Assembly (NCBI RefSeq): GCF_004010195.1
Contig: NC_057719.1
Coordinates: 48,205,071-48,269,070 of the forward strand
Direction: 5' to 3'
DNA from: Chiloscyllium plagiosum
Lineage: Eukaryota
Length of the DNA stretch: 64,000 bases
The notes beneath the pieces are model-generated. The model saw only the letters and a program-made list of their open reading frames with translations. It searched no databases and was not told the DNA's origin. The position numbers were made by a program, and so were the translations under genes. This document shows positions 1 through 52,049 of this stretch, one piece after another (within the stretch, counting starts at the first letter, position 1; every line of letters begins with the position of its first letter).

Positions 1-528
1 TGGTGGAACTGGTCCTCCTGGGAGCAGATACGGTGGAGGCGGAGGAATTGGGAATATGGAATGGCATTTTTACAAGAGGTAGGGTGGGAAGAGGTGTAAT
101 CCAGGTAGCTGTGGGAGTCGGTGGGTTTGTAAAAAATGTCAGTGTCAAGTCGGTCGTCATTAATGGAGATGGAGAGGTCCAGGAAGGGGAGGGAGGTGTC
201 AGAGGTGGTTCAGGTAAATTTAAGGTCAGGGTGAAATGTGTTGGTGAAGTTGATGAATTGCTCAACCTCCTCGCGGGAGCATGAGGTGGTGCCAATGCAG
301 TCATCAATGTAGCGGAGGAAGAGGTGGGGACTGGTGCCAGTGTAATTACAGAAGATGGACTGTTCTATGTAGCCAACAAAGAGACAGGCATAGCTAGGGC
401 CCATACGGGTATCCATGGCTATCCCTTTGGTCTGGAGGAAGTGGGAGAATTCGAAGGAGAAATTGTTAAGGGTGAGGACCAGTTCGGCCAAACGAATGAG
501 AGTGTCCGTGGAAGGGTACTGTTGGGGA
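1..528 (-). mobile_element. Penelope-like element reverse transcriptase fragment
   Basis: ORF 210..491(-) has LTLNNFSF, QTKGIAMDTRMGPSYACLF and FLRYIDDC motifs typical of PLE RT; nearly identical to the + copy at 11305..11730. Confidence 0.9.
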
Positions 529-697
529 TGTATTTTCTCCCCACCCCCACCTTCCTCTCATTTATCTCTCCACCCTTTAGGCACTCTGCCTGAATCCTGA
601 TGAATGGCTTTTGCCCGAAACTTTGATTTTCCTGCTCCTTGGATGCTGTCTGAACTGCTGTGCTTTTCCAGCACCACTCTAATCCAGAATTTGGTTT
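529..697 (+). mobile_element. PLE terminal repeat (pLTR) with degenerate hammerhead, inverted relative to the adjacent RT fragment
   Basis: CCTGATGAATGGCTTTTGCCCGAAAC...GGATGCTG...TTTTCCAGCACCACT matches the PLE 3' end at 12780-12958. Confidence 0.8.
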
Positions 698-869
698 GGT
701 TTTAGCAAGCAGCATATTGTGAAGCTGCAGGACCCAAGGAGCAGGTCCATGATGATTCTCCCTCTCTCTGACATCTCTCTTGTAAGAACTTGTGTTGGAT
801 TTCTCCTTTTTTTGCAAAGGGGTGTTTATGGGGATTGTTGCAAGTATTTGGAACAGCATAATTAAGTTG

Positions 870-1180
870 GGATAATCTCATTCACGTCTTGACAATGCAT
901 TGGCAATCACGTTTTCTCATCCTGCCACATGCACAGTTTTCAAATTTAAATGGCTGTAACAACAAATTCCATCTAAACAGTCTGGAATTTTTGTTCTTAA
1001 ATGTGTCCACAAACTTCAGTGGGCTATGATTAGTGTATGATTGTCTCAGATACATTACTGGTAACATAAACATTGAAATGTTGTAACGCCAACACCAAGC
1101 TCAAAGTTTCCTCAACAGTCAAATATTTCTGCTGATGAAGGTTCAATTTCCTGGAGAAATACTGATGGGTCTTTCTATTT
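870..1180 (-). mobile_element. Gypsy pol RNase H fragment
   Basis: Minus-strand translation YFSRKLNLHQQKY...LALQHF...YTNHSPLKF...RLFRWNLLLQPFKF. Confidence 0.75.
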
Positions 1181-1189
1181 TCACGTCGT

Positions 1190-1401
1190 CTTTTTGTAAG
1201 GGTTGGGTTTTCAGATAGTTTAAGTTATTCTGTATTCGGTAATCTTGCAAATAAATTCTGTGTTTGTTTAAACTAAGTGGTTGGGCTAGCTGCATCAATA
1301 TCCATGAATATCCACTTTACACCTGCTTAAAACAACTATCAAAGTTAGGGTCTGGTCTACTTTCTTGAAATGTTTTGAGGGGATCTGGCCTGGCCATAAC
1401 A
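1190..1401 (+). mobile_element. LTR 3' fragment
   Basis: AATAAA near 1249 and terminal ...CATAACA, next to Gypsy fragments. Confidence 0.45.
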
Positions 1402-1439
1402 TAAGACTCTTTTGCTGTCTTGAAAACTGCATATTGACA

Positions 1440-2650
1440 GTAACTATAATGGCTTGCTGGCCTTGATCCAGAAGAAAATTTTAACCATCTGACTGAGGCC
1501 TGGCTTCGTTTTGGAGTTTTGCACTGGGCCACCTAGAGTATCTCTCATCAGGATATGCCATGAGTGAAGCTATGCAGCTGCTTGCACTCAAGTGGTATTC
1601 CCCAATCTCAGTTGGACTGGAAAGGGTGTCCTTTTCTATCAGAATGTCCTGCTTCTTTTGCGACATTTTCCAAAGTTTAAGACAATGTACTTCCTGTTTG
1701 AAGTCCAGTTGAGCTTCAGCTAGTAGGCACTTTTGCATGGTTATATCATATACCAAATGGTCTCTAAGCATCTCATTAAGCGATATACCAAAGTCACATG
1801 TCTTTGCCAGTTCTCTTAACCTAGTCAAAACTCCTGACATGGACTTCCTTCATTCTTGAATTATCAAGTAAAAATGATAGCATCTCAGAATTAAAGGAGT
1901 CCCAGAGTCATAATATTCCTTAATTAAATCCATCAACTCTTGAAACATTTTAGTATCTGGTGCCTTAGGGAAAGTTAGATTCCTAATAACCAAAGACATT
2001 GCAGGTCCACAAGCTGTCAGGAAATTTACTCATTGCCTTTCATATGCCCCATTATTGTTTTCCTGGAAAACATAACACATTATTTCTGCATACTGGGCCC
2101 AGTCTACGATGGCAAGGTTGAACCAGTCACACTTTCCAAATAATGGCATGATGCAAGAAATGCTTACCCCAACTCAAAGATGACTGTTGCAAGCAAGTTT
2201 ATTCAGGAACATGCTTTGGTCTCATTGCCATTGAAATAACTCAACAAAGATCGATATCCTGTCACCAAGTCACTCTTTATTTAATTGTGGAAAGGCCTTC
2301 ACTTTGGCACAGCCTTGTTGGAGTCAGTACCCAGAGGGTCAGAGTCTCTACGCATCTCATTAAGAGATAAACCAAAGTCATATGCCTCTGCCAGTTGTCT
2401 TAACCTAGTCAAAATTCCTGACATGGACTTTCATTGGTCTCAAATTACCAAGTAAAAATTATAGCACCTCAGAATTAAACAAGTCTTGTAGTTGTAATAT
2501 TCCTTAACTAAATCTGTCAACTCTTGAAAAGTTTTAGTATCTGGTATCTAAGGGAAAGTGTCACAGTCTCAGACACTCCTCTTTTTACCTGTCAGCCAGG
2601 CATTCCTGATTGGATCAGATTAACAGTCCCAATCAGGAAACTCATTCTAC
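1440..2650 (-). mobile_element. Degenerate Gypsy element (K02A2.6-like gag, PBS region and 5' LTR)
   Basis: Minus strand reads PLFGK..., TACGP, LRELAKTCDFGISLNEMLRDHLV (gag). The LTR end ...TTATTTCA is followed by TGGCAATGAG (PBS-like) near 2221-2234. LTR sequence at about 2232-2650 is interrupted by a copied gag segment at 2352-2559. Confidence 0.75.
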
Positions 2651-3297
2651 CTTACAAAATAATTAGTTGTGAAATTTTAGTTTGTGATCAGACTGAAGTC
2701 TCTTTTATCGCTCTCTTCTCTCCTCCATTCTGAATGTTCACTACCATTTAATTTGTAACAAAAGGATCTGCTTAGTGTTGTCTGTTCACATTGCTTGTTA
2801 AGGCTGTTTCAGTTCCTGGAATGCTATATCACATGATGCTGTTTTTTATTCTGCAATTTATTAATATATTCATCTCAAAATTACTTTGGTTAGTGCAAAC
2901 CTTCTCTATAAATACACAACTGAAAATATTTTTGCTGCATTTCTGCAGCAAATATGATTGACCGGTAAACCTATGAACTGTTGCATAGCACCAACTTAAT
3001 TTGCATCTCAACTTCAAAATTTGAAACTTAGATTATTTTATACAGCAAAAGTCAGAATTCTGATAGAATGTATAACTCTTAAAACTGTAGTCATTACTAA
3101 CCCTGATTAGAATTTAACACTAGCACATAACAAATTTCAAATGCTGGAACATGGAAGAGTACAGTTAATGCCATTCAAAATACTCTAATTGACATTTTTA
3201 TGCTCAGAACCTTAATCTCCCACTGTGTTAAACTACATCAAAAAATATGGATGAGACATTATTCCCATAAAGGGTTAATGGGGTCATAAAATTATCA

Positions 3298-3511
3298 GGA
3301 GAAAGTGAGGACTGCAGATGCTGGAGATCAGAGCTGAAAATGTGTTGCTGGAAAAACGCAGCAGGTCAGGCAGCATCCAAGGAGCAGGAGAATCGACGTT
3401 TCGGGCATGAGCCTGAAGATTCCTGAAGAAGGGCTCATGCCCGAAACATCGATTCTCCTGCTCCTTGAATGCTGCCTGACCTGCTGCGCTTTTCCAGCAA
3501 CACATTTTCAG
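3298..3511. mobile_element. Palindromic PLE pLTR insertion
   Basis: Inverted arms 3333-3413 and 3432-3512; flanking direct repeat CATAAAATTATCA at 3285-3297 and 3512-3524. Confidence 0.85.
3418..3455 (+). ncRNA. Minimal type I hammerhead ribozyme motif (PLE-type)
   Basis: GATTC-CTGAAGA-A-GGGC TCAT GCCC-GAAAC-ATC-GATTC: core boxes, 4-bp stem II, short stem I. Confidence 0.6.
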
Positions 3512-4102
3512 CATAAAATTATCAACAAACAAAACATATCTCTAATGCTGTAGTTTGGGTTTATAAATTAATTATAGTACATTCATCTGAGATACCCTTT
3601 CTTCTCTTTGTATTCATGTACAGTGAAATCATAGAGTTTATTTTGACCACTTTTCAGGATAGAGAATGATGTCTCTCACATAATTTATTTGCATTCTGTC
3701 ATCATTTTGTCATGCCATTGTGATTACGGATCACTTATTTAAATTAAAGATTGTAAATTTGTGTATTCCAAATCATCTATTACAAGAGCATTAAACATTA
3801 ATGATAAACAAAACAAAGCAGCTAACAAACTGTTTAATAATGCACCATGGATTAAGCAACCCCAAAGGTGTAAAACTGCATGGAATTAATAATCTTTGAT
3901 AAAATACTTAAATAAGCAAATTCTTGGCAAAATGATTCTCCCTAAATCACATCTGGAAAAGTTAACCGAATATCTAAGTGACCATCAAACTATATTTGAC
4001 AAGAGACCATATGCAAAAATATCATGACTATTGAATAAAACATTGCACTGGAATTTTCTAGAATGTCACATCTGATTCCAAATAACAATTTGCATTTATA
4101 TA

Positions 4103-4424
4103 TATATTTTTGACACTCCTGTTTTTTTCTCCCTCTTTTTCTCCCTCCACACTACTGCCTAACTGCGGTAGTGCTTATTTTCCCCCAGCACCCATGTCAT
4201 GTGTGTGCAGGTGTAGGACACAGTGAAGAACAACAAGTGCGTAAATCTTTATTTCTATTCCACCACCAGGAAAGAAAGGAAACACCAGAGCAGCCAGTGA
4301 CAAGCGGTGCCCTTCTCAACAAAGGGCAATGCTGTGTGATCAAAAAAGTGAAGAGGAGGGCAGGAATTGGAGGGCAAAATAAAACACTCCACTCTACACG
4401 GTTCCCACCTCTCCCTGAACAGCT
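4103..4424 (-). mobile_element. Solo short Tx1-clade LINE 3'-end element
   Basis: Diverged copy of the 5888-7655 unit; 18-bp flanking duplication ACAATTTGCA(T/G)TTATATA at 4085-4102 and 4425-4442. Confidence 0.7.
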
Positions 4425-4878
4425 ACAATTTGCAGTTATATAATGTCCTTAATGTAATCTGGTATGTTAGAAGCTCACTGGACTTTTTCATTGTCTGGTT
4501 TTCATTGTGCATTTATTGAGCTGGCCGTAAAATGAATGCCTGAAGTGAGTGCAGCATGGTAAAGGGCACATGACTATGACAAATCAGGAGCTACATTGGT
4601 ACAGTATTGCACTTTTATCCCAAATATTCCTGTGTTCTTGCAAAAAAATGCATGCATTATCATCTACATTGTGAATTCCCCAATTTATCCATTCTGTACA
4701 CATTATCCTCTAGCTTTTGCAGTTTATTATTTTCAATAGTCTCTGCACACACATGGCACATGTATGGCTGACCCTCTTTTTTTTGGCTATGTTTTGCTGA
4801 GATTTTCTGGGTATTTCTCACCATGAATTTAGTGATTTTCTCACCATACCATACCAAACTTGACTCATTGAATATCTA

Positions 4879-5026
4879 CGAGGTAAAAACAATGACTGCA
4901 GATGCTGGAAACCAGATTTTGGATCAGTGGTGCCGGAAGAGCACAGCAATTCAGGCAGCATCCGACGAGCAGCAAAATCGGATGCTGCCTGAATTGCTGT
5001 GCTCTTCCAGCACCACTGATCCAGAA
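4879..5026. mobile_element. Palindromic PLE pLTR insertion
   Basis: Inverted arms about 4915-4965 and 4978-5028; flanking direct repeat TCATTGAATATCTA at 4865-4878 and 5027-5040. Confidence 0.85.
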
Positions 5027-5244
5027 TCATTGAATATCTATCCCATCCCAAAGAATCCCCTATTGCCCCATCTTACAACTTGCCATTCCCAGAACAACTC
5101 ACCACTTCTGTAATATCCTGGAATTGATTGACAAGTCTGCTGCCAAGTGGTACCATCTTAAAGGCTTTCTGCACCCAGACAAACGCTGTTAGTCTGGAGC
5201 TGCCATGCAGGGTTCCTGCTATTTGCCCGAGACACGACAGACAA

Positions 5245-5425
5245 GGGAAAATTGACACCCTGTTTTGTTGGCAGGGATCTGTAGGTCCCGCTGGATAGAC
5301 TGATGCAGGGGCAGAATGTCATTTTCTCTCAGGATTAGCAAAGGGGTTCTTGATACCAGACTATACCAGTTTGGTCTGAGGTTACTGCCTGAGTTAAAGC
5401 AGTCTCAACCATCTGGAGGTTGACC
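5245..5425 (+). mobile_element. Harbinger Myb/SANT-like ORF remnant
   Basis: Translates GKLTPCFVGRDL*VPLD...IPVWSEVTA*VKAVSTIWR; homologous to 23076-23270(-). Confidence 0.5.
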
Positions 5426-5807
5426 ACCTTCACTCTGCCAGCATAAGAACCACTATTTTCTCTGCGGTATCTCACACACTCTGGCTTTTCCACAGCATAG
5501 TCCTCCCACCAAGGCTCATGGTCAATCACTCTCACTATTTTCTGCAAAACCTTACTTACTGTCGCCCACTCCAACCCCAAACAGCATTAATGCTGTATAC
5601 TTTCTATGCCACTTACTCATTCACTTGGGAGGAGAGAAAAGAGGAATAAAAGGGACTCCAGTCTGATCACAAACTAAAATTTCACAACTAATTATTTTGT
5701 AAGGTAGAGTAATTCATTTTACAATGTTACAAACCAAAATATACACAGAATGGCAAGGATACAATGCTTATAAATTCAATTGAATAAAACATTTTCTATC
5801 TAGATTA

Positions 5808-5897
5808 GTTGTAATATTCCTTAACTAAATCTGTCAACTCTTGAAAAGTTTTAGTATCAGGTATCTAAGGGAAGTGTCAGAGTCTCAGACGCTCCTC
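5808..5897 (-). repeat. Duplicate of the gag/LTR junction at 2490-2581 (left part)
   Basis: GTTGTAATATTCCTTAACTAAATCTGTCAACTCTTGAAAAGTTTTAGTATC...GTCTCAGAC is nearly identical to 2490-2575; the match resumes at 7641-7720. Confidence 0.9.
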
Positions 5898-7655
5898 TTT
5901 TTTTTCAGTGCACAAATCTTTATTCAATTTCCACCACCAGGAAGATAGGAAAACACCCGAGTGGCCAGTGACAAGCAGTGCCCTTCACATCAAGGGGCAA
6001 TACAGTGCTCTTTATTTTTTTTTCTTTAGGTGTGAGACACAGTGAGAGACACAAGGTGCACGAATCTTTATTCAATTTCCACCACCAGGAAGATAGGAAA
6101 ACACCCGGGTGGCCAGTGACAAGCACTGCCCTTCACATCAAAGGGCAGTGCTGTGTGATCAAACAGTGAAGGGGAGGGTAGGGACTAAATCAAAATAGAG
6201 TTGGAGGGGGAAATAATGCACTCCACTCCCTGCGGCGCCCACCTCTCCCTGACACTCCTCTTTTTTTAAAAATAGAGTTGGAGGGGACACTCTTGTTTAT
6301 TATTATTATTTTTTAAATTTAACCCTCACACTACCACCTAAGTGCGGTATTGCTTATTTTATCCCCAGCACCCATGGTGTGTGTGTGCAGGTGTGAGACA
6401 CAGTGAAAGACACAAAGTGCACAAATCTTTATTCAATTTCCACCACCAGGAAGATAGGAAAACACCCGAGTTGCCAGTGACAAGCAGTGCCCTTCACATT
6501 GCTGATTTTGTTTGGACACCCGGGCTCTAATGTAACCGCGGACACTCCTGTTTATTTATTTTTTCTTTTTTTCCCCATAAATTTAACACCCACACTACCA
6601 CCTAACTGCGGTAGTGCTCCTCTCCTGATTATATGTATATTATTTTCTTTTTTTTGTTTTTTTAATTTTTTTTAAATTAACCCCCACACTACCACCTAAG
6701 TGCGGTAGTGCTTATTTTTTCCCCAGCACCCAAGGTGTGTGTGTGCAGGTGTGAGACACAGTGAAAGACACAAAGTGCACAAATCTTTATTCAATTTCCA
6801 CCACCAGGAAGATAGGAAAACATCCGAGTGGCCAGTGACAAACACTGCCCTTCACATCAAAGGACAATGCTGTGTGATCAAAACAGTGAAGGGGAGGGTA
6901 GGGACTAAATCAAAATAGAGTTGGAGGGGGAAATAATGCACTCCACTCCCTGCGGCGCCCACCTCTCCCTGACGCTCCTCTTTTTTTTTCCTTTTTTTTT
7001 ACTCCTGTTTATTTTTTTTTCTCTCTTTTTTTTCCCTAAGTGTGGTAGTGCTTATTTTTTTCCCCAGCACCCATGGTGTGTGTGTGTGCAGATGTGAGAC
7101 ACAGTGAGAGACACAGTGCACAAATCTTTATTCAATTTCCACCACCAGGAAGATAGGAAAACACCCGGGTGGCCAGTGACAAACACTGCCCTTCACATCA
7201 AAGGGCAGTGCTGTGTGATCAAAACAGTGAAGGGGAGGGTAGGGACTAAATCAAAATAGAGTTGGAGGGGGAAATAATGCACTCCACTCCCTGCGGCGCC
7301 CACCTCTCCCTGACGCTCCTCTTTTTATTTTTATTGTCTTTTTTCTTTTTTTTTTCTACTACCACCTAAGTGCGGTAGTGCTTATTTTATCCCCAGCACC
7401 CATGGTGTGTGTGTGCAGGTGTGAGACACAGTGAAAGACACAAAGTGCACCAATCTTTATTCAATTTCCACCACCAGGAAGATAGGAAAACAGCCGGGTG
7501 GCCAGTGACAAGCACTGCCCTTCACATCAAAGGGCAGTGCTGTGTGATCAAAACAGTGAAGGGGAGGGTAGGGACTAAATCAAAATAGAGTTGGAGGGGG
7601 AAATAATGCACTCCACTCCCTGCGGCGCCCACCTCTCCCTGACGCTCCTCTTTTT
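5888..7655 (-). repeat. Tandem array of Tx1-type LINE 3' ends (~300-350 bp unit)
   Basis: Full units at about 6674-6970, 7034-7311 and 7357-7640 plus partial units. Minus strand reads RERWAPQGVECIISPSNSILI* (Tx1-like ORF2 C-terminus), then a 3'UTR with AATAAA, stem-loops and an A-rich tail. Junction motif GAC(A/G)CTCCTCTTTTT at 5888, 6251, 6971, 7312 and 7641. Confidence 0.8.
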
Positions 7656-7750
7656 ACTTGTCAGCCAGGCATTCCTGATTGGATCAGATTAACAGTCCCA
7701 ATCAGGGAATTTATATTCTATTCTAGCTGCCTCACCTCATTCCAAACACG
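7641..7750 (-). mobile_element. LTR fragment (continuation of the 5808 duplicate)
   Basis: GTCAGCCAGGCATTCCTGATTGGATCAGATTAACAGTCCCAATCAGG is identical to 2591-2637; related LTR start at 51901. Confidence 0.8.
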
Positions 7751-8129
7751 ACAAGTCTTTCTCAAACTTCTCATATGATTCTCTCAGATTTCTTGCCATT
7801 GCCCTATAAGATTCCACCCATAGTATTTATTCTGTTTGTTATAAAAAACCTTGATTGTTTAATTTCTACATACATATACTGTCTATATATAAATAGTGGC
7901 CACCCACCTTCATCTCCCTTAATACCTGCTCTTTCATCATTCATGGAGGAAAACAGCCTTCAATTGAGCAGAGTCAAGGTGGGTAGTGGGCTGCCTGAAA
8001 TTTGACTCCTCACCCATTTGATCCTGACCCTGATTGTCCCGAACAGCTGACTTACCATCTCCAAACTCCTGGACTAATATTGAAGGCTGTCCTTGACTCA
8101 CTATGCCAGGATGTCCTATGTAAAGGTTA

Positions 8130-8375
8130 AAATAAAATAAAGAACTGTGGATATTGGGCATCTGGAACAAGAAAACAGAAATTGCTGGAGAAGCTCAGCA
8201 TGTCTGGTATCATCTATAGAGAGAAAGCAGAGTTAATATTTTGAGTCCAGTGACCCTTCTTCAGAAGAAGGGTCCATTCGAAGAAGGAACACTGGATTCA
8301 AAACATTAACTTTGCTTTCTCTCTACAGATGCTGCCAGACTTGCTGAGATTCTCCAGCAATTTATGTTTTCGTTG
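8130..8375. mobile_element. Palindromic PLE pLTR insertion (second family)
   Basis: Inverted arms about 8170-8266 and 8280-8374; degenerate hammerhead CTGAAGAAGGGTCACTGGACTC(A)AAA on the minus strand; related fragment at 9170-9290. Confidence 0.7.
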
Positions 8376-9399
8376 CTAATTAAAGGCTATCTCCCTTGAC
8401 TTGACTGAGGACTGCTGATAACAATGACAAGCCTTTTGGCTCTATTTCCGTACTAGACAGCATGGGAGTACAGCAGTACCATGAGTTTGGTATCTCTGGC
8501 TGAGAGGCAAGGTGCAAATAGGAAAGCTGAGGTAAGACAAGGCAAGGCAGAGATGTTACAAGCATCCAGATTGCTCAGAGTTAGTGAGCATTATGGGAAA
8601 AACTGAACATTCAGGTCTTGTTCTTGATTTGGGTGCATATCTCTGAGTACACAGAGTCCTTGCTGCAGCATTGAAGTACAGCAGCATCCTGTAAGTGAAT
8701 TAGAGATGTATTATGAGGATTCATAGGGGCTGGCACATGTTGGATGCCAATGTCTGTGGTCATGAAGGGCATGTGGCCAGTGACCATGGAGCTTGCCCTA
8801 CAATCTTGGTGCCCAATGTCCAAATTGGAGGCCGTTTGAAGCAGTCAGCAAGCTGAAGTTGCTAGGTACCCAGTCTTTCTACCAGGTTGAGAATTTTCAG
8901 CATCCAGTTTTCTTGTGGCAGATGGTAGAGTGGGAAGCTGCATATTAATGAGTTGAGGGGTGCAGTTAATAAGATCATTAACAAGGTTTGATGTAGTTAG
9001 AAGTTGCAGTGAGTTGTTCCCAATGTTGAGATTGGTCTCACTAGAATTCTTGCATGATTCTGCCACATTTCTCACATCTTCCACATCATTAAGAGCGCTG
9101 TAAGAGTCCTCCTATAGTCTTTAAATTGTGCTGGTATCTTAAAGATAAGCGTGCACATTAAAAGAGACTCATACTGGACTCGAAATGATAATTCTGTTTC
9201 TCTTTCCCCAGATACTACTCAACTTGCTGAGTTTCTGCAGCATTCTATATGATTGTTTTATATTTTTGGCATCCACAATATTTTGCTTCTATTGTATTTG
9301 GCAGCTTATCTGGGTGATGTAAATTCTTTGGGGACTGTTAATCCCAGGTCACTTGTTTTGCAGTACTTGTTGTTTCATTTCTGTTGTTCGGGTGCTGTG

Positions 9400-10040
9400 G
9401 ATCTCTGGGACTAATAGTTGATCTGTTGACTGCGAATAGTGAGTTCATATCCTTCTGATCATACACCTGCAGAGTAAGAACAGCTGCTTCATTTGTGCAT
9501 TTATGATGCCGCTGTGACAGTATGTTTGGTCATTCACTTCCACCATGTATGATTGAGATGACAATTGCTCTGTTTTGGTCTCAAGTTGCCATTTAGGCTG
9601 ACTCTTTTTGAGAATGCTTGGGTCTTCGATACTCAACTTTAGCATACAATTTTGATTTCTACGATGTCAATAGTTTGGGCGCAATTTGACATTAGTCTTT
9701 GCACTAGACTACCTTCTATCTCCTTAGTAGATGTGTCCTCCACTTGAGGATTGCTTTATATTAGTCTATTCTCATTTTATTCAAGATGTTGACGATTCCT
9801 TTCCAAGTTTTTATGGTTGACTCAGTCTTTTAATTGGGCTAAAATCACTGTGGATGTGATTATGGTATTGAGTTTTTCAATCCTTTGTAAAGCAGTTGAA
9901 TTCTTCACTTATAACTGCTGATTATTGTCACTCACCACAATATCTGGAATGATATGACCTGAAGTATTCTTTCAAGCATTCTGCCGTGTCTGTTATAGTT
10001 GTTGAAGTCAGCTGGTCTACCTCCCAGAATAATCATCTCA
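9400..10040 (-). mobile_element. Gypsy integrase fragment, heavily decayed
   Basis: Minus-strand pieces EVDQLTSTT..AECLK.YF, EEFNCF, LVQRLM and KWQ...SQSYMVEVNDQTY resemble K02A2.6-type integrase and C-terminus. Confidence 0.55.
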
Positions 10041-10299
10041 GTTGAAATCAGAATCTCACCACTAAGTGGCGAACAGTATTCCTCCAACTTCCTTTCTGGC
10101 TGGACAGATCTCTGAGGCTCATGTGGAGCAGCAACTTGCAGAATTGGAAATCAATGTCACAATCAGTGTGCCAACACTGATCACTGTGCACAGAACCTTG
10201 GAGAAGCAGCATGTGTGCATAGCTGCATGGCTTAGAGGGAACAATGGTGGCAACTACTTTATTTCTGGGCAGGTTGTTGGAGGGAATCCTGAGGCACAG

Positions 10300-13200
10300 G
10301 AGTTACATGTATTTAGAAAGGCAAGAACTGATTAGGGATAGTGAACATGGCTTTGTGCATTCTCACGAACTTGACTGAGCTTTTTGAAAAAGTAACAAAG
10401 AGATTTGTTATGGACTTCATGAAGGTGTTCAACAAAGTTCCTCATGATAGACTAGTTATCAAGGTCAGATCTCATGGAATACAGGTACTAGCCATTTGGA
10501 TATAGAGCTGGTTCGAAGGTAGAAGACAGAGGGTGGTGGTGGAGGGTTGCCTTTCAGACTGGAGGCCTGTGACCAGTGGTGTGCCATAAGGATCAGTGCT
10601 GAGTCCACTGCCTTTCTTCATTTATATAAGTCATTTGGATGTGAACATAGGAGGCATAGTTAGTAAGTTTGCAAATGACACCAAAATTGGAGGTGTAGTG
10701 GACAGTGAAGAAGGTTACCTCAGAGAACAAGGGATATTGATCAGATGTGTCAATGGATTGAGGAGTGGAAGATGAAGTTTAGTTCAGATAAATGTGAGGT
10801 GCTGCATTTTGGAAAGGCAAATTAGGGTAGGACTAATACTCTTAATGATAAGGTCCTGGGAAGTGTTGCTGAACAAAGAGACCTTGGAGTGCAGGTTCAT
10901 AGTTCCTTGAAAGTCAAGTCGCAGATAGGTAGGAAAGTGAGCTTTCAACCTCATAGTCTGGGAACCCCGCACCACCCGATTCTAACTCCTTCCCAAGATT
11001 CACAAGCCTGACCACCCCGGCCGACCCATTGTCTCAGCCTGCTCCTGCCCCACCAAAGTCATCTCCACCTACCTCGATACTGTCTATCCCCCCAGTCCAG
11101 GAACTCCCCACATATGTTCGAGACACCACCCACGCCCTCCACCTCCTCCAAGACTTGTGTTTCCCCGGCCCCCAATTCCTCAACTTCACCATGGACATCC
11201 AATCCTTCTACACCTCCATCCGCCATGACCAGGGCCTCCAAGCCCTCCATTTCTTCCTCTCCTGACGTCCCCAACAGTACCCTTCCACAGACAGTCTCAT
11301 TCGTTTGGCTGAACTGGTCTTCACCCTTAAAAATTTCTCCTTCGAATCCTCCCATTTCCTCCAGACCAAAGGGGTAGCCGTGGACACCTGTATGGGCCCC
11401 AGCTATGCCTGTCTCTTTGTCAGCTACGTAGAACAGTCCACCTTCCATAGTTACACCGGCACCACTCCCCACCTCTTCCTCCGCTACATTGATGACTGCA
11501 TTGGTGCCAACTCTTGCTACCGCGAGGAGGTTGAGCAGTTCATCAACTTCACCAACACATTCCACCTCGACCTTAAATTCAGCTGGACCATCTCTGACAC
11601 CTCCCTCCCCTTCCTGGACCTCTCCATCTCCATTAATGACGACCGACTTGCTCCCAGGAAGACCAGTTCCACCACAAAACAGACCAGACGGCCTCCTTCT
11701 TTAGAGATCGCAATTTCCCTTCTCACGTAGTTGAGGATGCCCTCCAACGCATCTCATCCACATCCCGCACCACCGCCCTCAAACCCCACGCCTCCAAACG
11801 TAACAAGGACAGAACCCCCCTGGTCCTCACTTTCCACCCTACCAACCTTCACATTAACCATATCATCCGACGACATTTCCGCCACCTCCAAACGGACCTC
11901 ACCACCTGGGATATATTTCCCTCCCCACCCCTTTCCGCTTTCCGCAACGACAGTTCCCTCCGTGACTACCTGGTCAGGTCCACGCCCCCCAACAAACCAC
12001 CTTCCCAACCTGGCATCCTCTCCTGCCACTGTAGGAATTGCAAAGCCTGCACCCACACCTCCTTCCTCACCACCATACAAGACCCCAAAGGAGCCTTCCA
12101 CATCCATCAAAGTTTCACCTGCTCATCCACCTATGTAATTTATTGTATCCGTTGCTCCCGATGCGGTCTCCTCTACTTTGATTGAGGTTTTTAAAATTGT
12201 GAAGAGTTTTCAAAGATTGGTTAGGAGATCAGTGATCAGGAGTCTTCAAATGGATTTATAAAAACACAGCTAAAGAACACTGCTTTGATGTATGAATTGT
12301 TTGGTTTGGCACTGGGAGTATCTGTTGCTCCCGATGCAGTCTCCTCTATATTGGAGAGACTGGACGCCTTCTTGCAGAGCGCTTCAGGGAACATCTCCAG
12401 GACACCCGCACCAATCAACCCCACTGCTCCGTGGCCTAACATTTCAACTTCCCCTCCCACTCTGCCGAGGACATGCAGGTCCTGGGCCTCCTCCACCGCC
12501 GGTCCCTCACCACCCGACGCCTGGAGGAAGAATGCCTCATCTTCCGCCTCGGAACACTTCAACCCCAGGGCATCAATGTGGACTTCACCAGTTTCCTCAT
12601 TTCCCCTCCCCTCACCTTACCTCAGTTCCAACCTTCCAGCTCAGCACTGTCCTCATGACCTGTCCTACCTGCCAATCTCCCTTCCCATCTATCTGCTCCA
12701 CCCTCCCCTCTGACCTATCACCTCCATCCCCACCCCCATTCACTTATCGTACTCTTTGCTATCTTCTCCCCAGCTCCCCCCACCCCACCCCCATTTATCT
12801 CTCCATCCTGGACGATCGCTGCCTCTATTCCTGATGTAGGGGTTTTGCCTGAAACATTGATTTTCCTGCTCCTCGGATGCTGCCTGACCTACTGTGCTTT
12901 CCCAGCACCACTCTGATCTAAACTCTGGTTTCCAGCATCTGCAGTCCTCACTTTTGCCTAGGAAAGTGAGCAAGGCATTTGGTATGCTTTCATTTATTGG
13001 TCAGAGCATTGAGTATAGGTTTTGGGAAGTCATGTTGTGGCGTACAGGACATTGGTTTTACCACTTTTGGAATATTGTGTGCAATTCTGGTCTCCCTCCT
13101 ATCAGAAGGATGTTGTGAAACTTGAAAGGATTCAGAAAAGATTTACAAGGGTGTTGCCAGGCTTGGAGGGTTTCAACAGGAGTTAGAAGTTGAACAGGCT

Positions 13201-13610
13201 GAGGCTATTTTTCCAGGAGCATCAGAGGCTGAGGGGTAACCTTACAGAGGTTTATAAAATCATGAGGGGCATGGATAGTGTAAATAGATAAGGTCTTTTC
13301 CCTGCAGTGGCGGAGTCCAGAACTGGAGGGCATAGGTTTAGGGTGAGAGGGGAAAAATGTAAAAAGGAATCTAATGGACAACTTTTTCATGCAGAGGGTG
13401 GTGCGTGTATGAAATGAACTGCCAGAGGAAGTGGTGGAGGGTACAATTACAACACTTAAAAGGCATCTGGATGGGTATATCCTCTAATAGGAAGGGTTTG
13501 GAGGGATATGGGCCATGCTGGCAAACAGGACTAGATTAATTTAGGATATCCGGTCAGCATGGATGCGTTTCTGTTGTGTACATCTCTAGAACTCTATGAC
13601 TCTATTTGTA
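10300..13610 (+). mobile_element. CR1 LINE (5'-truncated), interrupted by a PLE at 10943-12958
   Basis: RT motifs (MDF..VFNKVPH, SGVP*GSVL, KFANDTKIGG), QFWSP, FFMQRVV and a CTCTATGACTCTA tail. Confidence 0.9.
10943..12958 (+). mobile_element. Penelope-like element (RT + GIY-YIG endonuclease + pLTR), decayed
   Basis: LPKIHK, RYIDD RT motifs; VIYCIRC..C..LYIGETGR...RFREH...GINVDF endonuclease; pLTR with degenerate hammerhead at about 12827-12862; TSD TAGGAAAGTGAGC at 10930-10942 and 12959-12971. Confidence 0.92.
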
Positions 13611-14537
13611 TCTCATTGAAATCCCAACTTGCCTTTTAGACATGACACTTCCAATTCTGGTTTTCTAGACAGAGAAAATTTTTGACACGTGAGTCAGAGT
13701 GGTTACCTGGCAGCTTTAGCTTGCTCAATGCTCACCTTGGCTATCATTCAACTGCTTCTTCACAATAATGCCCTTGCTTGTTCAATGGCCATCATCCTCT
13801 TTGATCCTTCATCTATGTACTTTGGCATCAGCAAACTGCCAACCTCACTCTATCGTGACATCTGCTCTCAGACCAACTCTCAGTCACTTTTGACCTTCAA
13901 CTCTTCAAACTCAAATTGACTTATTAACTTGCATGCTTCTGCAAGGTCACTTTACTGACATAGACACACAAACATCTCATGCATCTGCACAGCACGCATT
14001 CATGGCTAGAAGCTTGCTTTCTTAGCACTCACTTTATTGAGGGTGCTAGCCTCAGCATACTTCATATTACTTACTGCATACACACAGACTTCAGCATTGT
14101 TCCAATAGCTCCCATTGCTTTTCATGCAGAGGGACAGGCAGGCAGCTTGTGAGGATGACAAGCACTGAACAGTTAATTTCTCAGATATGGGCTGGACATG
14201 TCAATGTACAGGATCATGCAACAACAATTTAATTTCATGCTGGAAATTTGCTAATGTCTCTTTTCTTTCTTGGATCCATTGCGATTCATTGTTCTTTGGA
14301 CAATGTATCCTCAGAATGTAACTGTCATTCTAGAGGACAGGCATTTCTCATTTAGTGCAAGTGTTAGGTTCTTTTCCCAAGGTTTCATATACAAGTTGCA
14401 ATTCGCACACACCAACATTTGCAAACAGTTAAAGATTAGTAAAGCCTGTACAAGCTAGGTGACCCCCTTTGACGTTCTTCGCAGGCTTGCGAAGTTGAGT
14501 CAAAAGTGGCCCCGAACAAAGGAAACACGTCCACTTT

Positions 14538-14800
14538 AGTTAAAAATCACACAACACCAGGTTATAGTCCAACAGGTTTATTTGGAAGCAATAGCTTTTG
14601 GAGCACTGCTCCTTCATCAGATGGTTGTGGAGAATAAGATTGTAAGACACAGAATTTATAGCAAAAGTTTACAGTGTGATGTAATTGAAATTATATATTA
14701 TATATTGGATTGTTTGTTAAGTCTCTCATCTTTTAGAATGACCATGTTGGTTTCAGTTCTTTCATTTATAATTTCATGTATTCTTTCATATATAATTTCA
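14538..14800 (-). mobile_element. PLE 3' end/pLTR (third family)
   Basis: Minus strand CTGATGAAGGAGCAGTGCTCC(A)AAAGC...CCTGTTGGACTATAACCTGGTGTTG; same family at 27152-27286 and 58826-58906. Confidence 0.65.
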
Positions 14801-15049
14801 GGTATATTGGTAATATGAAACAGCTTTCATTCATGCTATCTAAGTGATACTTTGCTTTATTCTTCAAAAGATTTTCCTGGGAGTGAATAAGTAGGTTTGT
14901 TTCTCATCTTCTCGCAGAGTAACAAGATATTCCAGATTCAGTTTATCTAAACCTAAATAACTTTGGAAATTCTTGCTAAAATTCTCTCCTACCTTTATTC
15001 TGAAGTTGTATTCACAGGGCTTCAGATGTGATCTGTACAGCTAGAACAA

Positions 15050-20662: not shown

Positions 20663-22071
20663 GAACATAGAACATAGAACATAGAAGAATACAGCGCAGT
20701 ACAGGCCCTTCGGCCCTCGATGTTGCGCCGATCCAAGCCCACCTAACCTACACTAGCCCATTATCCTCCACATGCCTATCCAATGCCCGCTTAAATGCCC
20801 ATAATGAGGGAGAGTCCACCACTGCTACTGGCAGGGCATTCCATGAACTCACGACACGCTGAGTAAAGAACCTACCCCTAACATCTGCCCTATACCTACC
20901 CCCCNNNNNNNNNNNNNNNNNNNNNNNNNNNNNNNNNNNNNNNNNNNNNNNNNNNNNNNNNNNNNNNNNNNNNNNNNNNNNNNNNNNNNNNNNNNNNNNN
21001 NNNNNNNNNNNNNNNNNNNNNNNNNNNNNNNNNNNNNNNNNNNNNNNNNNNNNNNNNNNNNNNNNNNNNNNNNNNNNNNNNNNNNNNNNNNNNNNNNNNN
21101 NNNNNNNNNNNNNNNNNNNNNNNNNNNNNNNNNNNNNNNNNNNNNNNNNNNNNNNNNNNNNNNNNNNNNNNNNNNNNNNNNNNNNNNNNNNNNNNNNNNN
21201 NNNNNNNNNNNNNNNNNNNNNNNNNNNNNNNNNNNNNNNNNNNNNNNNNNNNNNNNNNNNNNNNNNNNNNNNNNNNNNNNNNNNNNNNNNNNNNNNNNNN
21301 NNNNNNNNNNNNNNNNNNNNNNNNNNNNNNNNNNNNNNNNNNNNNNNNNNNNNNCCAAAGTGAGTCACCTCACACTTAGCTACATTGTATTCCATTTGCC
21401 ACCTTTCTGCCCAGCTCTGCAGCTTCTCTATATCCTGCTGTCACCTGCCACATCCTTCCTCACTGTCTACCACTCCTCTGACTTTCGTATCATCCGCAAA
21501 CTTGCTCACCCAACTTTCTAACCCCTCTTCCAGGTCATTTATAAAAATGACAAACAGCAATGGTCCCAAAACAGATCCTTGCGGAACACCGCTAGTGATG
21601 GCACTCCATGAAGAAACTTTGCCATCAACTACTACCCTCTGTCTTCTTCCAGGCAGCCAACTCCTAATCCAAACCTCCAACTCATCCTCAATGCCATACC
21701 TCCGTATTTTTTGCAGTGGTCTACCATGGGGAACCTTATCAAACGCCTTACTAAAATCCATATATACCACATCTACCGCTTTCCCCTCGTTCACCTCCTT
21801 AGTCACCTTCTCAAAGAATTCAATAAGGTTTGTGAGGCACGACCTGCCCTTCACAAAACCATGCTGACTATCCTTGATCACATTATTCCTATCCAGATGT
21901 TCATAAATCCTATGCCTTACAATTCTCTCTAAGATTTTGCCCACAACAGAAGTGAGGCTCACCGGCCTATAGTTACTAGGGTTATCCCTACTCCCCTTCT
22001 TGAACAAGGGAACCACATTTGCTAGCCTCCAATCTTCTGGCACTACTCCTGTAGACAACGAGGACATAAAA
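20663..22071 (-). mobile_element. Younger CR1 (5'-truncated), spans an assembly gap
   Basis: Intact RT ORF 21441..22067 ([27 protein letters not shown]); (ATAGAAC)n tail; TSD AGTATTATA at 20654-20662 and 22072-22080. Confidence 0.92.
20905..21354. other. Assembly gap
   Basis: Run of N. Confidence 1.
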
Positions 22072-27286: not shown

Positions 27287-30200
27287 AAATTATGCAACAT
27301 GGGAATCAAATCTGTAATTGGTCTACGAGTGGTCTGAAATATACCTACTGGATTGTGGGCCTTGTAAATGTTTTGACAGTCATCTTTGTGCCAATGTGAC
27401 ATTAAGATCCTTTTGAACACAGTGTTCACTGATTGGTTGACATCTCCAAACACCTTGAGTGAAGAATCCAGTGATAAGTCAAAGATGATGTTTTTAAATC
27501 CTGTGCAATGTTTTGCTTTTTGTCCTTTCTGTACGTTTTCCTACCAATAGTTAATGATTTTATTGAAATTAAGATGGAAAAAGTATCACAAAATGGAATC
27601 AATTCTGATCTGACCATTAGACTTATTTATAATCTGACTTGTGTAAAGTGCTCAATTTCAGTTTGAATCAATTTCAGTTTGAATCATGCTTGAAAATCAT
27701 TTCTCACTAACTTGATTGAGTGTTTTGAAGAGTTGACATAGAAGATTGATGAAGGCAGACTGGTAGATGTTGTTTATCTGGACTTCAGCAACTGTTCTGT
27801 ATGGTACAACGGTTAGTAAGATTAGAATACATGTAATCCGGGGTAGCGAGTCAATTGGATACAAAATTGGCTTGAAGGTATTAAGAAAATCTATAGCCTT
27901 AAAACTTGTTTTTAAACATTTAGACTAAAATGTAATGCTGAATTATAGAACACTTTTACTGGACTGGAAAACAGACAGGCAGGAAGGCTCAGAAAAAGGG
28001 GGGAATTCGAGGAATGCAGAAGATAGGGACATCTGGGCTCACCAAGTGATAACAGGATGCTGTAAGGCAATTAAGAACATTTGCCTGAGCATCGGTGAAT
28101 CTGTGTGAACAGGACACCAAGTGATAACATTCACAGCCGTTCCCTTCTGAAATTAATGACAGTGTTTAATTCTGACCCTGAAACGAAACTCGGTACTATC
28201 AAAAGCTTTGTAATTAACGGTCAGATGCTGCCAATTATAATGGATTCTTTTTAACCCTTGCAAGTGGGGCAGACACAGAGAGAAAAAAAATCTTTGCTGA
28301 CCTGAGTGTTCAAAAGGACACTAGTGAGAGAGACCATTTTACTGCTAAGGCTGTCGGAGCCAGCAGAAAATTAGCTCTTAGTGCTTATCTGCTATGGATT
28401 GAATTTAATTGCATTTTGGGACTTGATGATGATATTGAGTAGTCATTACTGGTTATTAAATACAAACTGTGTAAAAGGTAATATTGATGAAGCCTTAACT
28501 TACTTGCTGTTCTTGCTGACCATTCTACACAGTTTACAGACTGCCCCACCGTAAATTCTAACTAATCAGATCTTATGTCTTATTTGAATTTGAAGCACAA
28601 TCCTGAAAAGAAAGCATATTAATTCAAAGACAAATGAGTCAGTTTAAATGCAACCTTATGGTAACATCTTAGGTACAGTGCTTAAAAAGCAGGAGTCTGC
28701 TCCTAGCTTAAAAATTATTCTAAGCCTAACATTGAAGAGATTCTCCCACAACGTGTCAGGAAGCCATTTTATGGTCAAAAGTTTGCCCTCCTTGTTAAAA
28801 AGCCATTTTGTCATGGCACGTTATTATAGGGTGGGATTTTAATTGTCTTTTGGATCTGACAGTGGATAGGATGCCTTGTGGACCCCCAACTATTTCTTCG
28901 TAGGCCAAGCAGGTGGTTGACTTATGTGAGGAGTTGGGGATGGTGGATATTTGGAAATGTCTTCATCCTACCGGCAGGTACTTCACCTTTTCTTCAAACC
29001 TACATAAATGTCACACGAGGATTGACCTCTTTCTGGATCCATCAGCCCTTCTGGATTAGATTATGGGATGTAATATTGGGAATGTAGATATCTCTGATCA
29101 TGCAGCAGTGTGTTTGGAGGTTAAGGCCAAGAGTGAAGAGCTAGGTTTGCGGCACTGGCGTTTGGACCCCTTTCTCCTTAAGGATTCCAAATTTGTGGAA
29201 TACCTTTTGAAGGAGTTTCAGGAATTGTTGACTATCAACTCTGTCACGGCTAATAGTCCATCTATGGTATGGGAGACTGCGAAGGCCTTTGCTAGGGGAT
29301 TAGCTATTTCCTATTCAGCTGGCTGGAAACGACAGAAGGAGGAACAGCAGCGTCTACTTGAGATGCGGTTGAAAGCCGCACGAGGCGACACATTTTGCGC
29401 GGCCTTTGGTGACTAAGCCACAGCGGATCACGGCTCTCCAGGTTGACTTCAACACTGACACAAAACGCAAAAAAAGAACTTGCTTTTTCTAGACAAAGGC
29501 TGTTCGAATATGGGGGTAGGCCAGGGAAGTATTTAGCGTACCTGACTAGGAAAAAGCGTGCTCCCCAATCCATTACTGCAATCAGAGACAGCGCCGGGAT
29601 CCTTACACACGATGCTAAAAAGATTAATGAAGCTTTTCAGAGCTTTTACTCTGAATTGTATTGGTCTGAAGGCTGTGAGGACAGGAGGGCTAAAATGGAG
29701 ACCTTTTTTAAGAACCTGGACCTCCCAGGGGTAATCTTGGAACAGGACTCTCTCCTTAATGCCCCCTTGACAGTTCAGGAAATACAGGAGACAGCTAGGC
29801 AACTTCAGAATGGGAAAGCGCCTGGCCCTGATGGTCTTCCGGGCGAGTTTTATAAGGAGTTTATAGGGATTCTGTCAGAGCCAATGTTGGAGACGTACAA
29901 TCACTCCCTATGCGTGAATGCTTACCACTATCTTTGAGAGAAGCTAATATTTCCCTAATTCTTAAGAAGGGGAAGGTTCCTGAGGATTGTGCCTCAGACA
30001 GACTCATCTCACTATTAAATTCAGATTTCAAGATTCTATCAAAAATCCTGGCGCTGAGATTAGAAAGGGTGTTGCCCCATATTATTAAAAAGGACCAGAC
30101 AGGCTTTATATGGGGCAGTAGGTCCTCTAATAATATTAGAAGGTTGCTGAATGTGGTCCACGTTTGTCAGCAACGATCAATTCAGGGGTTGGCGATTTTC

Positions 30201-31210
30201 TTAGATGCAGAGAAAGCATTTGACAGGGTGGAATGGCCATATCTTTTTTATGTCTTAGAACAGTTTGGGTTGGGTAGAGTCTTTGCTAGGTGGGTAGAGG
30301 TTTTAAATCGCCACCCTTTGGCCATGGTTACCACCAATGGGGTGAAGTCTGGGAATTTGAGGATTGGTAGGGGTAGTCGGTAAGGCTGCCCCCTCTCACT
30401 GTTGTTGTTTACGTTGGTGATAGAGCCTCTGGCAGAAGCCATTCGTCAGAACGTCCACATAACTGCTCCGGAAGTGGGATTGAGGGCACACAAGATTACA
30501 CTGTATGCGGATGATGTCCTTCTGTTTTTATCGAACCCAATGACCTCCATACCCCAGTTGATACAATGTATCAATTCATTTGGGGCTATTTCAGGATATA
30601 AGATTAACTTTGCAAAATCGGAGGCTATGCTTTTGGGGAACCTTAAGGATATGCCAGAAGTTGAAGGTGGCCCTAAGTTCCCTTTTAAGTGGTCACGGAA
30701 CAGGGTTCCGAGACTTAGGCATTTTTATTACCCCCAAATTTGATCTGTTATTTCGGACTAACTTTGCTCACTTCCTCGACAATATTAGGCGAGATATCCA
30801 GAGATGGGAGGCTCTTCCAATTTCATGGCTGGACCGAATATCTCTCATTAAGATGAATGTTCTTCCTTGTTTATTTTATCCCATGCGTATGCTCCCTATA
30901 ATGTTTCCCAGGTCAAGACTGCGGAAGCTTCTGGGGTGGTTTGGTTCCTTTGTCTGGCATTGTGAGTGGCCCCTCATCAAGCTTACTAAATTGCAGTTGC
31001 CTCAAGGAAAGGGAGAAGTTGATTTCCCAGACATCAGGAGGTATCAATTGAGTTCCCTACTGTCCTTTGTCTGTGATTGGGTAGGTAATTATCCAAACTC
31101 AATATTGCTGGATATTGAGGCCTCCCAGGCAAAGTGCCCTCTTATTAACCTGTTGTTCATGGATAAGGTGAGGACAGTTATGGACCATTGCCGGAACCCC
31201 ATTGTCATTA

Positions 31211-31246
31211 GTTCCTGAAGAAGGGCCTGTGCCCGAAACGTCGAAT
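31211..31246 (+). ncRNA. Minimal type I hammerhead ribozyme motif
   Basis: GTTC-CTGAAGA-A-GGGC CTGT GCCC-GAAAC-GTC-GAAT; 4-bp stem I, palindromic ACGT in place of stem III. Confidence 0.72.
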
Positions 31247-31339
31247 CTCCTGTTCCCTGGATGCTGCCTGACCTGCTGTGCTGTTCCAGCAATAAAGTTT
31301 CAACTTTGATCTCCAGCATCTGCAGACCTCACTTTTTCC
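31213..31339 (+). mobile_element. PLE pLTR inserted in L1
   Basis: TSD TCATTAGT at 31205-31212 and 31340-31347; the sister L1 near 41970 has the empty site (NPIVISTVKAW). Confidence 0.9.
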
Positions 31340-39800: not shown

Positions 39801-41118
39801 CAGGATATTGGTACCCCTCTGGTTCAGATGAAGACAATCGTGCTTGTAGAGGTCTAACCTACCCCAGAAAGAGCCCCAATTATCCAAGAATGTGTGAAAA
39901 TAGATAAGTCCCCTGGGCCAGATGGGATTATCCTAGGATCCTCTGGGAAGCCAAGGAGGAGATTGCCGAGCCTTCGGCATTGATCTTTAAATCATCATTG
40001 TCTACAGGAATAGTGCCAGAAGACTGGAGGATAGCAAATGTGGTTCCCCTGTTCAAGAAGGGGAGTAGAGACAATCCTGGTAATTATAGACCAGTGAGCC
40101 TTAATTCAGTTGTTGGTAAAGTGTTGGGAAAGGTTATAAGAGATAGGATTTATAATCATATAGAAAAGAATAACTTAATTAGGGATAGTCAGCACAGTTT
40201 TGTGAAGGGTAGGTCGTGCCTCCCAAACCTTACTGAGTTCTTTGAGAAGGTGACCAAACAGGTAGATGAGAGTATACCGGTTGATGTGGTGTATATGGAT
40301 TTCAGCAAGGTGTTCGATAAGGTTCCCCACAGTAGGCTATTGTACAAAATGCGGAAGGATGGGATTGTGGGAGATATAGCAGTTTGGATCAGTAATTGGC
40401 TTGCTGAAACAAGACAGAGGGTGGTGGTTGATGGGAAATGTTCATCCTGGAGTCCAGTTACTAGTGGTGTACCACAAAGGTCGGTGTTGGGTCCACTGCT
40501 GTTCGTCATTTTTATAAACGACCTGGATGAGGGCGTAGAAGGGTGGGTTAGTAAATTGGCGAATGACACTAAGGTTGGTGGAGTTGTGGATAGTGACGAA
40601 GGATGTTGTAAGTTACAGAGAGACATAGATAAGCTGCAGAGCTGTGCTGAGAGGTGGCAAATGGAGTTTAATGCGGCCAAGTGTGAGGTGATTCACTTTG
40701 GTCGGAGTAACCGGAATGNNNNNNNNNNNNNNNNNNNNNNNNNNNNNNNNNNNNNNNNNNNNNNNNNNNNNNNNNNNNNNNNNNNNNNNNNNNNNNNNNN
40801 NNNNNNNNNNNNNNNNNNNNNNNGTGACGGCGAGCATGAGGGGGCATAGCTTTAAATTGGGGGGTGATAGATATAGGACAGATGTCAAAGGTAGTTTCTT
40901 TACTCAGAGAGTAGTAAGGGTATGGAATGCTTTGCCTGCAACGGTAGTAGATTCACCAACTTTAAGTACATTTAAGTCGTCATTGGACAGGCATATGGAC
41001 GTACATGGAATAGTGTAGGTTAGATGGGCTTCAGATTGGTATGACAGGTCAGCGCAACATCGAGGGCTGAAGGGCCTGTACTGCACTGTAATGTTCTATG
41101 TTCTATGTTCTATGTCCT
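36883..41118 (+). mobile_element. Full-length CR1 with internal inversion and a second antisense CR1
   Basis: 5'UTR; ORF1 with zinc finger, leucine zipper and esterase (IGDS, HIGTND) at 37192-37993; inverted EN segment at 38300-39891; RT at 39980-40718; (ATGTTCT)n tail; TSD ATAATT at 36877-36882 and 41119-41124. Confidence 0.9.
40719..40823. other. Assembly gap
   Basis: Run of N. Confidence 1.
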
Positions 41119-51985: not shown

Positions 51986-52049
51986 CAAAAATAAAAAATG
52001 ACCTCTGTGATTTTAAACTGATTCAAACAGATATGTAATTAAACAGTAC

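Follow-up and report, generated by a model that had tools for sequence, protein, structure and literature searches.

In a window of 64,000 nucleotides of Chiloscyllium plagiosum DNA, we found an array of seven poly(A)-tailed LINE 3′ pieces (5906-7640, minus strand) that is bracketed by two copies of a 15-bp target duplication (TSD) and comes directly after the TATA-like box in a broken LTR. Four of these pieces start at one and the same 5′ base, and their 3′ halves come from different donors. The array displays target duplications, separate tails, differing donors, a shared junction and foreign target motifs, which we consider to be probably the work of a LINE that nicks a short motif, reinserts serially at the site it has rebuilt, carries target sequence along from its donors and lets newcomers inherit the 5′ start of a resident copy.

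Layout of the array and its target duplications

Read along the minus strand, the LTR 5′ part is followed by the 15-bp target (T), U7, T, U6, T, U5 and a partial T; the second part of the array then consists of U4, a foreign motif, U3, a foreign motif, an 18-nt piece, T, U2, a foreign linker, U1 and T, and behind this outer 3′ T come 14 nt of LTR fused to gag-like sequence (Table 1). TRF called an array at 6028-7654 with a period of 341 and 4.7 copies. For the ragged part (5898-6660), the structure is taken from the assembled window sequence alone; read mapping covered 7300-8150.

Table 1 Features of the array and its surroundings, in minus-strand order (window positions; T, local target; U1 to U7, array units)
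Feature	Positions	Strand	Basis
LTR 5′ part: TG start at ~7753, CCAAT at 7682-7678, decayed TATA-like A-run into the target	7656..7753	-	sequence; read pile-up
Outer 5′ copy of the 15-bp target duplication, AAAAAGAGGAGCGTC	7641..7655	-	motif search, alignment
U7: last 21 LINE ORF codons, stop, 3′ UTR with two hairpins and AATAAA	7358..7640; A-tail 7327-7357	-	sequence, folding
Internal copy of the local target duplication	7312..7326	-	motif search
U6: 5′ base as U7; 3′ end shorter; donor-type target piece ATAAACAGGAGT (7012-7001) separates two A-tails	7034..7311	-	
Internal copy of the local target duplication	6971..6985	-	motif search
U5: 5′ base as U6/U7, longest 3′ end; A-tail to ~6640	6675..6970	-	
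Partial local target GAGGAGC (6622-6616), joined to U4 via 3-nt microhomology	6573..6622	-	
U4: last hairpin only; minor allele at reference position 7370	within 6573..6622	-	
Donor-type target motif ATAAACAGGAGTGTC; closer to the LTR family than the local site is	6541..6555	-	motif search, LTR loose ends
U3: 41-nt head, fused within the first hairpin's loop; A-tail 6301-6314	6315..6540	-	
Second donor-type motif (6300-6286, 14/15 like 6555-6541), 18-nt piece of a further unit, short A-tail	6268..6300	-	
Internal copy of the local target duplication, CpG to TpG	6251..6265	-	motif search
U2: 5′ base as U5-U7; cut ~39 nt past AATAAA at its 3′ end; A-tail followed by foreign 15-nt linker 6015-6001	6028..6250	-	
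U1: begins inside the first hairpin; 3′ end 13 nt behind AATAAA	5906..6000	-	
Outer 3′ copy of the target duplication	5888..5902	-	motif search, alignment
14 nt of leftover LTR fused to gag-like sequence	5806..5887	-	
Solo, older copy of the LINE end (~78% to units), not in an LTR	4085..4442; LINE part 4103-4424	-	
Empty duplicate of the site, target once (2572-2586), 149/156 to the filled copy minus insert	2489..2645	-	
Remains of an LTR retrotransposon gag-pol, decayed and in part duplicated, orientation as the LTR	1030..2559	-	Pfam, Atlas

Searching the window for the pattern GACRCTCCTSTTTT with at most one mismatch gave 8 matches against 0.15 expected, and none of 100 shuffles reached 8. 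The six positions at which the initial annotation had placed the motif (2572, 5888, 6251, 6971, 7312 and 7641) all matched, and 4112 and 6541, which it had missed, were added. Its statement that the site is duplicated and its second copy split by ~1.75 kb was borne out by aligning 2489-2645 with 5806-5902 plus 7656-7714, which agreed at 149 of 156 aligned positions with one gap and left an insert of 1,753 bp. The A-rich tails described behind the units were counted as nine separate A-tails, and four units (from 7640, 7311, 6970 and 6250 downward) code on the minus strand for the peptide RERWAPQGVECIISPSNSILI*, with identical DNA in 4/4.

The description of the 3′ UTR as structured held for two local hairpins (z -4.2 and -4.6; 0/200 shuffles each), but the whole unit folded no better than its shuffles (z -1.55, 7/100). 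The first hairpin (7502-7548 and equivalents) is broken inside in U1, U3 and 4 of 10 tandem joints (from the best 12 of 230; p 0.07) and may be prone to breakage. The 41-nt head of U3 lies in an open frame reading RGYIRARVS... and is presumably an upstream piece of the same LINE ORF.

An empty site had been proposed within the window, and the target does occur once at 2572-2586, but the block that holds it is a local duplicate and not an independent second LTR, because it shares the LTR-gag deletion joint with the filled copy. This duplicate can be taken as a fair stand-in for the pre-insertion state. Equating the duplicated block with LTR was likewise correct in part, as ~70 bp of it (2489-2556 / 5806-5873) are gag-like coding sequence and not LTR.

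The LTR retrotransposon at the locus is broken and rearranged. A 157-bp direct duplicate (2489-2645, and on the other side 5806-5902) flanks a 3.16-kb segment; the start of this segment (~2642-2736) recurs inverted at 5618-5712 (90%) and is followed there by 97 bp of other sequence, and 1760-1975 is repeated at 2344-2559 (84%). The rearrangement at 2489-2736 and 5618-5902 looks like template switching during replication or repair.

The LINE family in public reads

Four public runs (raw reads of X23; contigs of X1, X6 and X12) were mapped to 7300-8150 at 85% likeness; sequencing-run shares (part of the stretch was present in 18 of 24 rows) served only to choose the runs. From X23, 15,873 of 12,895,792 raw reads mapped, with a depth of ~5,970 on the unit versus ~1 in low flank bins, and by this depth ratio the LINE has roughly 6,000 copies, or 9,000-15,000 for an assumed genome of 3-5 Gb. 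The flank was present in three organisms, with 2 differences in 459 nt, 8 in 378 and 18 in ~458, respectively. Joints with letters between the two sides were counted on the best 12 of 230, of which 10 are head-to-tail tandems and 2, forward skips, were excluded; substitution positions were taken from the best 40 of 171 rows, and all such counts therefore reflect the rows with most support. Target-like linkers were seen in tandem joints of three organisms, and nine different 5′ ends occurred among the 10 tandem joints. The family is abundant and has probably been active recently.

Most copies extend beyond the 5′ end of the unit (7642), where 2,886 X23 reads go on into one upstream sequence, as do 160 contig ends in X1, 119 in X6 and 182 in X12, and this loose end is among the best-supported ones listed in the three contig runs. 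Its 30-letter upstream consensus keeps the frame open by hand translation. Because the reads continue upstream in an open frame, the units are truncated LINE copies and not a SINE; this refutes the short 'derivative' family of the initial annotation, and the initial reading of a fixed-length non-autonomous element was dropped. A SINE-like derivative of fixed length with its own defined 5′ end would fit four units with one start and a solo copy starting 8 nt away, but it is hardly credible beside a loose end that enters the open upstream frame in four runs and a region (1-12000) in which no Rfam family reached its gathering score (16 weak matches). We found no family-wide fixed 5′ end or RNA-gene head such as a SINE with a fixed head would have. 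Instead, the units carry the hallmarks of LINE 3′ ends, namely a poly(A) tail, variable 5′ truncation and a 15-bp TSD equal to the empty site, a target duplication of 10-20 bp being the criterion used.

The window contains only the last 21 codons of the parent ORF2, and the Tx1 label of the LINE is putative, given for an apparent resemblance of this ORF2 end to Tx1 proteins. Target sequence preference, a trait of several Tx1-clade LINEs, is seen in one 15-bp site used repeatedly and in a core shared by 8 of 10 tandem linkers (from the best 12 of 230). The parent protein was not found in Pfam, ESM Atlas or protein-representative searches: Pfam gave no match to the LINE ORF end, the Atlas no usable match (top score 0.80), and a 40-codon frame ending in the peptide drew 11 protein candidates with 0 scored. 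Two matches of a 30-codon frame among 1.84 billion representatives (a plant AT-hook protein and a repeat protein) were rejected as chance. At the DNA level, the unit pattern had 0 matches in metagenome contigs and the patterns searched in prokaryote genomes also had 0; nine viral matches to an 18-mer were rejected, as none extends beyond 19 bases.

No parent was present among the other LINE frames of the window either, where the unit matches the array and the solo copy only. The window is repeat-rich, vertebrate-type DNA in which 11 of 68 long open frames have Pfam RVT_1 or endonuclease matches. It holds broken L1-like LINE copies with such matches (29413-31566, 41552-44707 and 59614-63279) and several CR1-like copies (e.g. 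37438-40849 and 52327-55224), none of them the parent of the array. Near-perfect inverted repeats at 3333-3512, 4915-5028 and 8171-8371 (51-92 bp arms, 12-18 nt apart) are the source of weak miRNA-like Rfam matches; they are made from the end of a common repeat, also present at 592-688, which we take to be Penelope-like. A retroelement coding segment lies in opposite orientations at 146-531 and 11265-11650 (386 nt at 91%); it had no Pfam match and is presumably Penelope-like as well.

One 5′ junction, different donors

U2, U5, U6 and U7 share their 5′ base and show no difference in any of the six pairs over 7552-7640 (89 nt), whereas over 7417-7551 (135 nt) they differ at 5-9 positions per pair, giving 11 variable positions versus 0 (Fisher p 0.003). 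Six of these 11 fall among the nine family-polymorphic positions listed for 7417-7551 in X23 (best 40 of 171 rows), where alleles stand at 20-55% of reads and none is at a CpG (hypergeometric p 5e-6, or 0.015 under the looser assumption that 30 positions were polymorphic). The four units also have different poly(A) sites and tails. Since family alleles, poly(A) sites and tails all differ, the 3′ halves come from different donors; alleles common to the four units could derive from one young sub-family.

The 89-nt identity does not reflect family conservation, because the family varies at no fewer than four positions inside this stretch (30-56% other allele; best 40 of 171 rows), and the chance of such identity for three more donors is 0.001-0.085. 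The identity could be an assembly collapse; six unlisted differences in the 3′ halves predict ~4 in the 5′ parts, where 0 are seen (p 0.02). With a 5′ loss rate in the family of ~0.001 per base, three more copies would end on the same 5′ base with a chance of ~1e-9. As family 5′ ends are spread and equal starts this improbable, the 5′ junction of the four units must be inherited. The switch from resident to donor sequence is bounded from above only, at 90-128 nt from the junction.

Serial reinsertion at a TSD-rebuilt site, which had been proposed from the outset, agrees with the identity of the 15-bp TSD to the empty site, the nine A-tails, the differing family alleles and the tandem joints in three organisms. 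Plain serial insertion fails to explain four units sharing one 5′ base, and an extra step is needed. Alternatively, unequal exchange could have amplified one target and unit at the DNA level, with gene conversion or crossover involving other alleles or dispersed copies replacing the 3′ halves and tails afterwards. A shared 5′ junction would follow from this automatically; arrays grown from TE dimers by unequal exchange (bioRxiv 10.1101/158386) and amplified identical R1 junctions (PMC2718515) are known, and other DNA-level duplications are present at the locus. We consider this unlikely. All four copies would have required a replacement of their own that extended into tails with different poly(A) sites, and all of this before a single mutation had arisen in 4 x 89 nt; U1, U3 and U4 with their own 5′ ends, as well as the foreign motifs, would be left unaccounted for.

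A single reverse-transcription event in which RNA-to-RNA jumps stitched the pieces together could account for the U3 head and the U2-U1 joint, and the breaks in the first hairpin in U1, U3 and the tandem joints would suit it. Such jumps would neither restore the local form of the 15-bp target at three internal joints and a partial one, nor begin four pieces at one base, and we regard this origin as very unlikely.

We also considered that the array might be partly an assembly product, in which short reads of a many-copy family inflated a shorter real insertion or mis-paired its halves. Three N runs in the window, each inside a LINE copy (20905-21354, 40719-40823 and 62480-62641), make a short-read or scaffolded assembly likely, and the very high family depth and perfect 5′ identity point the same way; among the reads and contigs listed for the mapped 7300-8150, none spans the array. 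Against this, a stretch of ~65 nt at each of 7312 and 6971 takes in a distinct 3′ end with its tail, the local target and the start of a unit, and since these joints fit within one read, several such junctions must exist. The G-type junction is moreover over-represented in X23 raw reads, as 5 of 30 reads at 7644 lack the common A variant (p 0.0002-0.004 for one copy at depth 0.5-1; p 0.02-0.18 for three copies), and in X1 it stands at ~39 versus 17 for the flank, a weak point, since depth does not measure copy number. The family also has many tandem joints, and on balance an assembly origin appears quite unlikely.

Target motif and LTR

On the LTR side, family reads accumulate at 7677-7705. 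Their loose ends lead into an LTR-like repeat, in whose consensus a TATA box directly precedes the target motif in all three contig runs and three organisms. The target LTR, whose 5′ part is taken to lie at 7656-7753, is found as a multicopy repeat with TG start, CCAAT and TATA boxes. Downstream of it, Pfam RT_RNaseH (PF17917) matched 1030-1221 at 25.3 bits, just over the cut-off of 24.8, and is probably of Ty3/Gypsy type. The gag-like frame had ESM Atlas rows at 0.91-0.92, which are a lead only, and its protein search returned 3 candidates with 0 scored; the LTR DNA pattern had 0 matches in metagenome contigs. A second, diverged LTR 5′ part lies on the plus strand at ~51890-51995 and stops in the A-run where the target would begin, with no LINE unit after it.

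Eight of the 10 tandem linkers (from the best 12 of 230) have a TG(T/C)(T/A)T core before a T-run, one joins a local-type motif and one is without the core, and examples of the core before a T-run occur in all three contig runs. Three of the same 10 continue as the LTR of the array, two fit an LTR variant and the others do neither; in one X12 contig, a short unit piece is joined to the LTR (7413 to 7652). LINE depth is ~12 times LTR depth, the latter being under-counted. The initial annotation had named a Gypsy LTR motif as the target, and the array does sit at the TATA-like box of an LTR adjoining RNase H remains that are probably of Ty3/Gypsy type, but exclusive targeting is not supported, with only 3-5 of the 10 linkers LTR-like and the solo copy outside an LTR. 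Taken together, this supports a LINE that prefers a short motif, for which the LTR TATA box is a favoured multicopy site and not a demonstrably exclusive one.

Foreign target motifs and a solo copy

The motifs at 7012-7001, 6555-6541, 6300-6286 and 4112-4124 match the LTR loose-end consensus and differ from both local sites. They are therefore not local duplications, because the empty and the filled site both carry the local variant. In U6 and in the solo copy, the foreign motif is placed between two tails. An AATAAA arises where tail and motif meet, both in U6, 7 nt ahead of the second tail, and behind U3, 28 nt ahead of it.

The solo copy has its own 18-bp duplication (4085-4102 / 4425-4442, 17/18), and the piece between its two A-rich tails is of LTR target type, CAGGAGTGTC (4112-4124). 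Its own target begins with a TATA-like run, and a 16-nt deletion crosses its stop codon. Its 5′ end lies 8 nt from the shared start of the array (chance ~0.02), and this near-equal start could mark a local stop site; among places where many molecules begin or end, none was listed in the read mapping of 7300-8150.

Discussion

The mechanism that we favour would begin with a LINE that nicks DNA at a short motif, with a sense strand of roughly (AT)AAA(C/G)AGGAG, of which the TATA box of the LTR family would be a multicopy example. Target-primed reverse transcription would leave a 15-bp duplication, and the site would survive on both sides and be hit again. Donors in standard LTR sites or in donor arrays would be read through, and where the donor tail plus ATAAAC forms an AATAAA signal, the RNA would end by read-through polyadenylation in the target piece or in the next unit. 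Whole blocks (U4-U3-18-nt piece and U2-U1) would thus arrive from donor arrays with foreign target motifs inside, and with block arrival the array would be the record of about six insertion events.

For the inherited start, the enzyme would nick the upstream T and copy a new RNA, and the cDNA would pair with the resident 5′ end and make no truncation joint of its own. The duplicated stretch would then be T plus the start of the resident, and the newcomer would combine the resident 5′ junction with a new donor 3′ half. Annealing of the cDNA to a resident copy is the likeliest cause of a shared start with differing 3′ halves, and for this step by itself we judge the case evenly balanced. Somewhat more doubtful, and offered tentatively, is the wider proposal that a resident copy templates later 5′ junctions (target, inherited start and new donor tail) while read-through transcripts carry the motif and array blocks and seed landing sites outside the LTR.

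Both LTR-preferring Tx1 families and tandems separated by a TSD have been described before, and what is unusual here is the shared start with different donors. Crocodilian Tx1-8_Crp and Tx1-4_AMi prefer LTR retrotransposons, a family being counted as LTR-specific when >20% of flanks are of one type, and tandem SINEU-3 copies sandwich a TSD in connection with Tx1-Mar (Kojima 2015, PMC4494074). SINEU-3 are snRNA-headed SINEs, whereas the units here are LINE ends, and a shared 5′ junction with switching donors, as present here, is not described in the consulted parts of PMC4494074. Drosophila R1 forms arrays separated by the TSD, carries downstream target elsewhere and anneals its cDNA at 5′ joints (Stage and Eickbush 2009, PMC2718515), and by analogy the present array may work like R1 and crocodilian Tx1 arrays. 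R1, in contrast, targets 28S rDNA and not an LTR TATA-box motif, and its annealing uses upstream target sequence in the RNA; the partner that we propose here is the body of a truncated copy already in place. Tx1L of Xenopus laevis, found in transposon Tx1D, is likewise an endonuclease-guided LINE entering a mobile element (PMC1950540, PMC4494074); it is stringent (PMC1950540), whereas the array LINE has thousands of copies and varied target linkers, and the likeness drawn here is one of targeting. In TE tandem dimers, insertion-site preference leads to double insertion with a TSD in the joint (McGurk and Barbash, bioRxiv 10.1101/158386). Distinct 5′ truncations mark independent events in those dimers, whereas here independent donors have one truncation.

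Chimeric L1s form with a resident L1. In human L1, cDNA pairs with nearby homologous DNA (bioRxiv 10.1101/2024.08.27.596794), and long TSDs are known, for example 126 bp in R9 (PMC6895275). In such cases the cDNA leaves its RNA, anneals near the site and duplicates more than the usual short target, as proposed here. Those cases are single events, whereas in the present array one site would have undergone the step three times, perhaps because targeting puts a homologue right behind the nick.

In the literature searched, in which subscription journals were thinly covered, we found no account of a cartilaginous-fish Tx1 family at an LTR TATA box or of arrays with an inherited 5′ junction. Targeting at this locus adds one more example to a known list. 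The locus is also a natural test of second-strand priming in LINE insertion, a step called unclear in PMC6895275, and with thousands of copies and many arrays, the frequency of inherited 5′ junctions and of haplotype-switch points can be counted. If resident-templated starts are common, shared truncation points no longer prove DNA-level duplication. Arrays with identical truncation points are usually read as DNA-level duplications, and if our explanation is true, they would be records of repeated retrotransposition. Target-motif transduction, if common, would be a route to new sites for site-preferring LINEs.
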